Assembly (NCBI GenBank): GCA_944393215.1
Contig: CALXZL010000002.1
Location: 485 to 64,484 of the forward strand
Reading direction: 5' to 3'
DNA: 64,000 bases
Source: an uncultured Alphaproteobacteria bacterium
Lineage (GTDB): Bacteria; Pseudomonadota; Alphaproteobacteria; RF32; CAG-239
Shown: positions 11,786 to 13,996 of the stretch, in pieces
Layout of the letters: each line of letters starts with the position of its first letter
How positions within the stretch are numbered: position 1 is the stretch's first letter
Program-made: the position numbers and the translations under genes
Notes under the pieces: generated by a model
Told to the model about the DNA's origin: nothing
Database searches by the model: none
The model's input: the letters and a program-made list of their open reading frames with translations, nothing else

Positions 11786-13996
11786 ATGCATGATGTGATT
11801 ATTGACGATACTCAAAACTGTTTTGTTGCCACAACACAAATGGAAGAAAGAAAAGAAAAATTAAAAAAGGAAGCAAAGCCCAAACGCAAAGAAAGACTTG
11901 CCCCGTATTTAATAGATTGGTTGGAAAAAGCCTTAGTCATAGCCTCATTAATCAGTCTCAATTTTCTGATATACGTCGGAGCCGGCAGCTATGACATGTT
12001 TTCAAGCTACACCATCTTAACTCCGGAAGTTTGGTATATATTAAGCGGGATTATCATATTCTCAATATTAATAATATATTGTGTTTCATTTTTTAAGCTT
12101 TTGCAAAACTTGTTGGTGGCGGCAGTGGCATACTATTTTGTCATCGCCATGCTGAACCAGTTTGCCGTATTTGACAAGAGCACCATGCTGGCAGGTCTGA
12201 CGGCAACATACATTTCCCAAGATTTAGGAATTTTGTTGAGTTATGTTTCACATATTGTTGTGGCATTGGTAATTGCCGGTGTTGTTTTTTTATTTATGGC
12301 ATTTGCCTCTAAGTTAAAAATATTTTGGTTTTTAGTTGCACTGATTTGTATCAATATTTTAGTCATTTTCAGCCAACTGATAGATGCAAATGAACACCAA
12401 AAATTCAACGTTTTAAAAGAAGAAGTCATCAATGCCAAAGCAAAAAGTGATAAAAAATTCATTTACATAGGCTTACAAGGTCTTGGTTCATATGCTTATC
12501 TGGATAAACTGGCGGAAGATTTACCCAAAGATTCTCCGGAGCTTCCGGAAATAAAAAAGACACAAGATATTATGTTGGGCTTTTATGCTCACAATAATTT
12601 TATCTTTTACCCGCAATCATATGTTGAACATGAAGATGCGGCACAAAACTATGCAAAGATTCTCAATTCAAGCAGTTCAAAAACAGAAGATGAATACCTA
12701 CTCAAAAATGTCTATCCGGAAAGTTTCTGGAAATTTAACCGACTAAATGAAAAACATATATATCTGAAAGAAAGCCGGTTGTACGATGCATTTAAAAAAT
12801 CAAAATTTTCCATAAACGCATATCAATCTTCTGATATAGAATTGTGTAAAATAAATAATGAAATGGCGGTTCACCGTTGTGTGGAAAGAAATGCGTCACC
12901 GATAGATTTTGATAATATGAACATTTCTGCATTTCAAAAAACCAAAATAATCATGGCACAATGGCTGGAAAGCATGCAAATTTTTGATGATTTTTCATTT
13001 TTTTATAAAATACTCCGCCCGATAAGTGATGCTGACACAATGCCGCTGGTAGGCATGTCTTATAAAGACATAGATATCAAAAATTCGGCAGATGTGTTGG
13101 ATTTGGTTGTGGCTGATTTAAACAAAACCAACGGAAATACGGCATATTTCATCAACATGGATTTACCGCATGAAAGTTATATTTTTGATGAATTTTGCCA
13201 AGTAAAACCAACTGATGCCTGGAGCAACAAAAAAGATTTGGAGTGGAGTCAAGGAGTAAGTACGGACAAGAAAAGAAAAGCCTATATGCAACAAGTTCGC
13301 TGTTTGTACGGCAAATTGCAAAAATTTGTTGATAACGTCAATGCCAAGACCAAACAAAGAGACACCGTCATTTTCATACAAGGATTAAGCGGATTAAACG
13401 GGTTAAGTGCTCCTAAACAAGAACAATTATTCTTAGATGAGTTTATGAATAAAAATTTCGTAGATTCAGCAGTCAAAGATCCTCTAAAGAAAGATTTTCA
13501 AATAAAAATCGAAAGTTGCTCCGCAAGTGATATTCTCAACCAATATCTATATCGTCGCAAACAATGTCAGGAATTTAACTTAAACATAGAAGAAAATTTA
13601 AAGAAAAAGATATTAGAACAATTACATACATATACCATTTCAACAGAAGCAACGGAAAAGGCAAAAAAAGACTTTGCAGACTGGTATAAAATTTGGCAAG
13701 AGAAGCAAGGAAAAACAACTCCAAAAGTAAGTTTACCTAAAATAGAAAAGAAAGCAGAAGCCAAAGTCAAAAAGTCAGAAAAAAAGGAAGAGATTCCCAA
13801 TAAAAATATTAAAAAAGCTCCCGAAGTGGCAAAAGATATTCCGGAAGAGAAGGAAGAAGCAGTAAAACCGTTATCTCAAGCCATAAAAGAAGAAACTGTA
13901 CAAGAGAAAAAAGTAGAGACGGAAGCCGAGAAAAAAGAAGAAAAAACAGAAGTTAAAGAGAAAGACACTCCAAGCCAAGAAAAAGGAAAAGAATAG
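11786..13996 (+). CDS. Polytopic membrane protein with a degenerate sulfatase/alkaline-phosphatase-like domain and a Lys/Glu-rich tail
   Basis: About 5-6 hydrophobic segments, then a soluble domain with 'FINMDLPHESYIF'. ATG at 11786 with GAGG RBS; the listed TTG at 11681 lies inside the rpsD terminator. Confidence 0.6.
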   Translation: MHDVIIDDTQNCFVATTQMEERKEKLKKEAKPKRKERLAPYLIDWLEKALVIASLISLNFLIYVGAGSYDMFSSYTILTPEVWYILSGIIIFSILIIYCVSFFKLLQNLLVAAVAYYFVIAMLNQFAVFDKSTMLAGLTATYISQDLGILLSYVSHIVVALVIAGVVFLFMAFASKLKIFWFLVALICINILVIFSQLIDANEHQKFNVLKEEVINAKAKSDKKFIYIGLQGLGSYAYLDKLAEDLPKDSPELPEIKKTQDIMLGFYAHNNFIFYPQSYVEHEDAAQNYAKILNSSSSKTEDEYLLKNVYPESFWKFNRLNEKHIYLKESRLYDAFKKSKFSINAYQSSDIELCKINNEMAVHRCVERNASPIDFDNMNISAFQKTKIIMAQWLESMQIFDDFSFFYKILRPISDADTMPLVGMSYKDIDIKNSADVLDLVVADLNKTNGNTAYFINMDLPHESYIFDEFCQVKPTDAWSNKKDLEWSQGVSTDKKRKAYMQQVRCLYGKLQKFVDNVNAKTKQRDTVIFIQGLSGLNGLSAPKQEQLFLDEFMNKNFVDSAVKDPLKKDFQIKIESCSASDILNQYLYRRKQCQEFNLNIEENLKKKILEQLHTYTISTEATEKAKKDFADWYKIWQEKQGKTTPKVSLPKIEKKAEAKVKKSEKKEEIPNKNIKKAPEVAKDIPEEKEEAVKPLSQAIKEETVQEKKVETEAEKKEEKTEVKEKDTPSQEKGKE

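Follow-up and report, generated by a model that had tools for sequence, protein, structure and literature searches.

A putative pseudo-enzyme with the EptA/LtaS/PbgA membrane architecture, encoded beside yejEF in uncultured Alphaproteobacteria

EptA, LtaS and PbgA share a membrane architecture in which five N-terminal transmembrane (TM) helices, with the N-terminus inside the cell, precede an extracytoplasmic domain of alkaline phosphatase (AP)/sulfatase fold. EptA needs Glu240, Thr280, Asp324, His383, His453 and His465 together with Zn (PMC7576196). PbgA, also known as YejM or LapC, has the same architecture, cation-coordinating residues of the LtaS/EptA type are not conserved in it, and its interfacial domain binds lipopolysaccharide (LPS); the protein signals, and a catalytic role is unproven (PMC12444477). 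In YejM, Asp268 and Thr302 are retained, and weak Mg-dependent phosphatase activity has been reported for the protein (PMC7576196). No PbgA/YejM equivalent is known from the Alphaproteobacteria, in which the regulation of LpxC is still unclear (PMC12444477). Here we analyse gene X, which lies in a 64,000-nucleotide stretch of DNA (the window) from an uncultured alphaproteobacterium of the gut (GenBank assembly GCA_944393215.1, contig CALXZL010000002.1) and encodes a predicted inner-membrane protein of this architecture (Table 1). Both the sequence and the predicted fold give good support to the reading of X as a pseudo-enzyme.

Sequence searches with X, alone or as a profile, gave no match in Pfam, NCBIfam or the sequences of the PDB, including the Sulfatase family PF00884 even at E≤10, and no source names any member of the family. 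The first-pass annotation of the window had proposed a sulfatase-superfamily fold for the region that follows the membrane helices, and structure prediction with structure comparison gave just that, behind a five-helix membrane domain. AlphaFold supplied with a 126-sequence alignment returned a mean predicted local distance difference test score (pLDDT) of 86.5 and a predicted template-modelling score (pTM) of 0.84 (pLDDT 68 with 20 sequences); across residues 224–642 the pLDDT was mostly 91–98, with a few blocks at 86–89. When compared with the PDB using Foldseek, X matched EptA best (5fgn, E=5e-8, 591 columns), followed by PbgA/YejM (6xlp, 3e-7, 655 columns) and MCR-1 (9nww, 4e-7, 630 columns). 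Dozens of type I sulfatases ranked below these three, and LtaS was present in the first search. Foldseek gave a probability of 1.0; between 138 and 157 matches were obtained at E≤1e-3, and all 50 listed per search belong to the AP/sulfatase superfamily. Since alignments of 591–655 columns exceed the periplasmic domain, they reach into the TM region. By its predicted core alpha/beta fold, X is a member of this superfamily.

Five TM helices are predicted concordantly by hydropathy and by two AlphaFold runs, at approximately residues 38–66, 80–99, 104–126, 145–173 and 176–199; five to six had been proposed from the letters alone, and the sixth was not borne out. Lysine and arginine are clustered at the N-terminus (10 of them within residues 1–45) and in the short odd-numbered loops, with almost none in the even loops, which argues for an N-in, C-out topology. 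A short periplasmic helix is predicted at residues 136–142, between TM3 and TM4, and nowhere is the protein more strongly conserved than in the loop that contains it (residues 124–156, NQFAxFD...YISQDLG...VSH). In the close-family set, which holds 20 close homologues, identity is 75.9% in this loop, 62.6% in the TM domain, 59.4% in the domain core and 23.9% in the tail; judged against the tail, both the TM domain and the domain core are under selection. Among 126–132 diverse relatives W479 and Q503 are invariant, and six cysteines (C354, C365, C471, C506, C578 and C594) are invariant or nearly so, which fits an oxidising periplasm. It is from the charge distribution and these cysteines that we place the domain in the periplasm. 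The arrangement predicted for X, five N-terminal helices with the N-terminus inside and then an extracytoplasmic AP-fold domain, is that of EptA, LtaS and PbgA.

We next consider the positions on which catalysis depends in this superfamily. At the end of the first strand, where sulfatases have DD, EptA and LtaS have E and YejM has D268, X has Q231-G232. The residue in the nucleophile position, at the N-terminus of helix 285–293, is A285, and the Asp-His of SDHG is replaced by L534-S535. The acidic ligand, the Thr, Ser or Cys nucleophile and the Asp-His or Asp-Asn pair of active enzymes are all missing. The sulfatase helix-strand motif reads Y..a....D..vG.l..L......nTlviftSDHG, and the corresponding stretch of X, KAYMQQVRCLYGKLQKF...DTVIFIQGLSG, parallels it. 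Profile-profile alignments with hhalign, which were used for motif register alone and agreed on that register, align TVIFIQGLSG of X with TVVIITAGRG of LapC and ftSDnG of AslA, and strand 1 with the sulfatase DD. The first-pass annotation had read the three positions as Q, A and GLSG; the same register emerges from hhalign (AslA and LapC, both weak) and from the columns of a sister clade described below, and the strings it relied on lie where it put them (IYIGLQGLGS at residues 226–235, DAAQN at 284–288, FINMDLPHESY at 455–465 and DTVIFIQGLSG at 526–536).

A tree of the domain resolves two clades. Clade A, with about 110 representatives including the window, is without all of the ligands: its consensus in the strand-1 ligand columns is P-N, and column statistics over 132 sequences give (L/V/I)-(S/N) in the SDHG Asp-His columns. 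In the same 132 sequences the nucleophile column is variable (A, P, K, S and others), and a conserved His was found nowhere in the clade A/X family. The loss of canonical metal ligands and nucleophile that had been claimed for X alone is therefore, judged by sequence conservation, a property of the whole clade. Clade B, which comes from other alphaproteobacterial families, has (D/N)H after strand 1, one position further on, often an LPHY motif, and HGD(K/R/H)G in the SDHG columns; one member (L042) reads GDHG. Five of the six clade B members tested give Pfam Sulfatase matches in the same HMM region, with E from 3e-4 to 2e-2 and 14.9–20.7 bits, below the PF00884 gathering score of 25 bits. Because clade B keeps (D/N)H and HGD(K/R/H), clade A is a degenerate derivative of a lineage with a partial metal site, and the family thus records how such a pseudo-enzyme arises.

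The former pocket has not decayed along with the catalytic residues. N288, N294, Y346/Q347, D459, P461, D468/E469 and Q532-G533 are among the most conserved positions of the domain, and these residues are non-catalytic, described as amide or neutral side chains. Since the pocket positions stay conserved yet carry non-catalytic residues, the most economical proposal is that X works on the outer side of the inner membrane by binding, sensing or scaffolding. We lean towards the view that X is a non-catalytic, PbgA-like envelope-ligand binder, sensor or scaffold from a separate, unannotated family of EptA/LtaS/PbgA architecture. Such a protein would no longer transfer or hydrolyse a phospho- or sulfo-ester. 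An envelope molecule in the outer leaflet of the inner membrane would be bound by its conserved former active-site pocket together with the highly conserved periplasmic side of the TM domain; as this molecule, a lipid or glycolipid headgroup and a cell-wall fragment are candidates, and it would act as a sensor or scaffold in the way that PbgA/YejM binds LPS. Three disulfides formed by the six cysteines may stabilise the periplasmic domain, the K/E-rich disordered tail may be a flexible tether or spacer that extends into the periplasm, and the cytoplasmic MHDVIIDD peptide is a candidate contact for a cytoplasmic partner. The genome has a single binding-protein-dependent ABC importer, half of it encoded by yejEF; within its order, X would be co-expressed with these two genes and would stand outside the transporter core.

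A number of observations weigh against a PbgA-like binder. A cation might in principle be coordinated by the conserved residues D459, D468, E469, N288 and S235, and the phosphatase activity reported for YejM makes the label 'dead' a risky one (PMC7576196). The Foldseek template-modelling scores (TM-scores) are modest, at 0.30–0.32 against full-length targets and no higher than 0.45 against sulfatase domains (target-normalised), and X is therefore a distant member of the superfamily. The profile-profile alignments with LapC, the EptA group and arylsulfatases are individually non-significant, those with AslA and LapC running at Prob 32–52%. The analogy with PbgA is architectural only, with neither DUF3413 nor, by tblastn, LapA or LapB in the genome. 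X is missing from five genomes of the order, so it is not strictly essential. The role itself is a predicted one, in an uncultured organism.

The best surviving alternative, which we nonetheless consider unlikely, is that X is catalytically active through a non-canonical set of residues, as a phosphotransferase or hydrolase of lipid headgroups or glycans that might use S235, D284 or N288 with D459, D468 and E469 and possibly Ca or Mg. The strong conservation of the pocket-lining positions and of the TM3–TM4 loop speaks for it, all the more as this periplasmic loop helps to hold the lipid substrate in EptA-type enzymes. So do the Asp and His that clade B keeps at ligand positions, and the example of YejM, which was once deemed inactive before its Mg-dependent phosphatase activity was reported (PMC7576196). 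Against this, the approximately 110 representatives of clade A have P-N at strand 1 and (L/V/I)-(S/N) at SDHG, they share no conserved His, and their nucleophile column holds A, P, K or S. The substitute residues are not fixed either: 16 sequences have G or A in place of S235, and 22 have N in place of D468.

The distribution and setting of X bear on the remaining alternatives. X is present as a single copy in 145 of the 151 genomes of its own order, and for this reason it is not a chance open reading frame (ORF). In a class-level sample it was found in 12 of 301 genomes at E≤1e-3; besides the window's own genome, six of these, from four families, reached E≤1e-24, and the rest were matches of E 1e-12 or weaker to ORFs of about 290–570 codons. 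A phylum-level sample of 401 genomes yielded the window's own genome and one weak match (1e-13). A search of 1.84 billion representatives gave 728 relatives at E≤1e-3, of which 142 reach E≤1e-30. The nearest genome records are metagenome-assembled genomes labelled uncultured Alphaproteobacteria or uncultured proteobacterium, some of them in human-gut catalogues. Within the order, one genus lacks X in all of its three genomes and two further genera lack it in one genome apiece; these five genomes keep yejEF behind a class I W/Y tRNA synthetase, sua5, gatAB, a SpoIIE phosphatase or a divergently transcribed leucine-rich repeat protein.

The start of X is well defined. AAGAGG lies 8 nt 5' of the ATG, and an identical MHDVIIDD start is found in 19 of 19 close homologues in the alignment; a longer frame initiated by TTG at 11681 was rejected on these same grounds. 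Between rpsD and X lies a palindrome with a perfect 14-bp stem, which is probably the rpsD terminator; X-yejE-yejF would therefore have a promoter of its own. The palindrome is bordered by A-runs and T-runs and could stop transcription in both directions.

Table 1. Coordinates of gene X, of the regions and sites of its product, and of neighbouring features (positions in the window).
Feature	Position	Strand	Basis
Gene X, 736-aa inner-membrane protein	11786..13996	+	ORF and translation; five TM helices, periplasmic AP/sulfatase-fold domain, disordered tail
X, cytoplasmic N-terminus, aa 1–45	11786..11920	+	MHDVIIDD and K/R-rich stretch; low pLDDT
X, five-helix TM domain, aa 46–199	11921..12382	+	Hydropathy; AlphaFold helices with pLDDT 90–98
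X, periplasmic AP/sulfatase-fold domain, aa 224–642	12455..13711	+	AlphaFold, Foldseek, conservation
X, Q231-G232, end of first strand, acidic metal-ligand position	12476..12481	+	hhalign register against AslA
X, A285, N-terminus of helix 285–293, Thr/Ser/formylglycine nucleophile position	12638..12640	+	hhalign; AslA SxPxR serine in same column
X, L534-S535 in TVIFIQGLSG, Asp-His position of SDHG	13385..13390	+	Register against LapC, AslA and clade B
X, disordered K/E/A/P-rich periplasmic tail, aa 643–736	13712..13993	+	pLDDT mostly <50; composition
TPR + class I SAM-methyltransferase protein, 587 aa, divergent from rpsD-X	9064..10827	-	Pfam; synteny
rpsD, ribosomal protein S4, upstream neighbour	11037..11651	+	Pfam; synteny in 14/14 order loci and L043
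Palindrome with perfect 14-bp stem and following T-run, between rpsD and X	11674..11708	.	Terminator scan and sequence
yejE, ABC permease	13997..15031	+	51% identity to E. coli YejE, E=6e-138; Pfam BPD_transp_1 and OppC_N
yejF, double ATPase	15031..16608	+	47% identity to E. coli YejF, E=4e-177; Pfam ABC_tran x2

Downstream, the GTG start of yejE directly abuts the stop codon of X, and the start of yejF overlaps the stop of yejE. In all 14 loci examined in the order the arrangement is a leftward tetratricopeptide repeat (TPR) protein with a class I S-adenosylmethionine (SAM)-methyltransferase domain followed by rightward rpsD, X, yejE and yejF, and X and yejE abut or overlap in every one. The other half of the transporter is elsewhere: yejA and yejB stand together on contig C1, with 38% and 57% identity to E. 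coli and no adjoining ATPase. YejB and YejE are the sole BPD_transp_1 permeases of the 1.72-Mb genome. Among 101 genomes of the order, 100 have YejB at a separate locus; the yej split is therefore ancestral to the order, and the Yej transporter, as judged by homology, is complete but split.

It seems to us quite improbable that X serves the Yej importer as a dedicated accessory, in which case it would be a receptor or dock anchored in the membrane, catching a peptide or muropeptide with its pocket or tail and passing it on to YejBEF. In favour of the idea, X, yejE and yejF are contiguous in 14 of 14 loci, their codons abutting or overlapping, in genera down to about 45% identical; YejB and YejE are the genome's only permeases of their kind; and in family f19 anmK is encoded on the same strand as X, three genes further downstream. 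YejBEF is also known to import muropeptides in other Alphaproteobacteria (PMC9790009). A strong form, in which X replaces YejA or YejB, is ruled out by the yejA and yejB orthologues on contig C1 and the presence of YejB in 100 of 101 genomes; X itself gave no Pfam match to the YejABEF component families SBP_bac_5 and BPD_transp_1. The milder form has to contend with the five genomes of the order that have yejEF behind unrelated genes and no X, and with clade B, none of whose genes lies near yej genes at the loci examined. As X can be lost while yejEF is kept, and clade B sits away from yej, the Yej link is a lineage-specific putative co-expression rather than an obligate partnership. The neighbours of clade B genes (BamD, RecN, LigA, an aldehyde dehydrogenase, a sigma factor, an ankyrin protein and anmK) have no common theme.

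The yejA (SBP_bac_5) and yejB genes lie at approximately 247,870–250,740 of G000:C1 (L006:5865-8853, minus strand), far from yejEF. Directly upstream of yejA is a gene for a 457-residue protein (L006:8750-10123, minus; G000:C1) that gave no Pfam match; it begins with two hydrophobic helices, and its C-terminal half is acidic and of low complexity. With X before yejE, an unannotated membrane protein whose tail is of low complexity thus stands ahead of each half of the split yej operon. A LonC/LonB-like AAA protease of 817 residues is also encoded near yejAB (L006:2879-5332, plus; G000:C1).

The TPR-methyltransferase adjoins X in four alphaproteobacterial families. A functional link between the two was considered and did not find support, as the methyltransferase also occurs in genomes without X. 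In L052 the methyltransferase and rpsD are paired without X, and inherited gene order suffices to explain the adjacency. Full-length orthologues of the methyltransferase occur in about a dozen small-genome alphaproteobacterial lineages, and a shorter paralogue is encoded at G000:C5:15223-16413.

The last alternative, that X is mainly a structural spacer in which the folded domain is a mere anchor and the polyampholyte tail works as a periplasmic tether, ruler or ion buffer, is very unlikely: a low-complexity E/K/A/V/P tail is indeed found family-wide, reaching at least 50 residues in 116 of 137 members (median 152, maximum 848), but it is barely conserved in length or sequence (24% identity) and absent from some members (minimum 0), while the TM and fold domains are under far stronger constraint. 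In X itself the low-complexity tail that had been put at about 110 residues is present and measures 94, with 26 K or R, 24 D or E and 7 P. The TolA-like tether read into it by the first-pass annotation did not hold up, the likeness being one of composition only: there was no match to TolA or any other Pfam family (E≤10), and the tail is predicted to be disordered and not a long helix of TolA type. A candidate LtaS-like signal-peptidase site ahead of the domain (AKA, residues 217–219) was also dropped, as it is not conserved in the family. The clade B members P0134, P0137 and P0144 have acidic or PEAK-rich tails of several hundred residues, the longest of 848, and a common C-terminal block after the tail (DELDITRE.ITE..SP.TG.KETYIFIE); the tail of P0144 contains three near-identical tandem repeats of about 95 residues each.

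At the other end of the protein, MHDVIIDD (11786-11809, residues 1–8) is retained down to about 45% overall identity. In the close-family alignment M1, D3, I5 and I6 are invariant, and H2, V4, D7 and D8 are at least 90% conserved. Remoter members of clade A have variants such as MEDIIIEE, MDDILLDD and MQDIFIND, and the peptide resembles a short linear motif, either one that contacts a cytoplasmic partner or one that works as a degron. A more ambitious extension of the favoured reading, to which we would give little credence, has X as the sensor of an undescribed envelope-homeostasis circuit in gut Alphaproteobacteria. A lipid of the outer leaflet, an LPS precursor or a muropeptide bound in the fossil site would then be signalled through the five TM helices and MHDVIIDD to a cytoplasmic partner, possibly the TPR-methyltransferase, with X stoichiometrically coupled to Yej, and X would be an independently evolved counterpart of LapC/PbgA.

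X is a near-universal, unannotated protein of a common gut lineage, and a definition of its family would help in the annotation of gut metagenomes. X is not the organism's only member of the superfamily, since two bona fide Pfam Sulfatase genes are found in the same genome. One encodes an EptA-like protein of 541 residues (E=9e-65), separate from X, and the second a protein of 470 residues (E=2e-19); the two genes lie at G000:C2:122997-123845 and C2:93963-94781.

Among the described systems, type I sulfatases (E. coli AslA and YidJ; 3ed4, 6psm) resemble X in the fold of the domain, with a TM-score of up to 0.45 on the target, and their Y..a....D..vG.l...L......nTlviftSDhG is paralleled by Y..Q..C.yG.L..f......T.i.iqG in X. 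In contrast to them, X lacks the CxPxR/SxPxR formylglycine motif as well as the DD and the DH, and is anchored in the membrane by five TM helices. LtaS (2w5r, 4uor) shares both architecture and fold with X; however, it is a Gram-positive protein that uses Mn with Glu255, Thr300, Asp475 and His476, all of which are absent from X. EptA and MCR-1 (5fgn, 9nww) come closer, EptA being the best full-length match, including the five-TM domain with its periplasmic helix between TM3 and TM4; its disulfide-rich periplasmic domain has a predicted counterpart in X. None of the six residues that EptA requires is present in X.

PbgA/YejM/LapC (E. coli b2188, Salmonella PbgA; PDB 6xlp, 6v8q) is the described system that X most calls to mind. 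Both have five N-terminal TM helices and a periplasmic AP/sulfatase-fold domain, PbgA is among the top three structural matches (655 columns), and both have lost the SDHG Asp-His, reading AGRG in LapC and GLSG in X in the same register. The two differ in several respects. LapC matches DUF3413 (PF11893, 7e-107) and Sulfatase (1e-40) in Pfam whereas X matches neither, there was no PF11893 match in the whole genome, and no sequence relationship between LapC and X was detectable (hhalign Prob 1.4). PbgA/YejM/LapC acts together with LapB/FtsH in the control of LpxC; in the genome that carries X, LpxC was found by tblastn (E≤1e-3) and LapA and LapB were not, although a divergent TPR partner is possible. 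X is also confined to a few alphaproteobacterial families, unlike PbgA, and has a six-cysteine set and a long disordered tail that PbgA does not. It is more fully stripped of catalytic residues, the positions equivalent to Asp268 and Thr302 of YejM being Q231/G232 and A285. The precedent of PbgA/YejM shows that an enzyme-shaped membrane protein can be an essential lipid sensor, and X looks like a second, independent loss of catalysis on the EptA/LtaS scaffold under strong selection.

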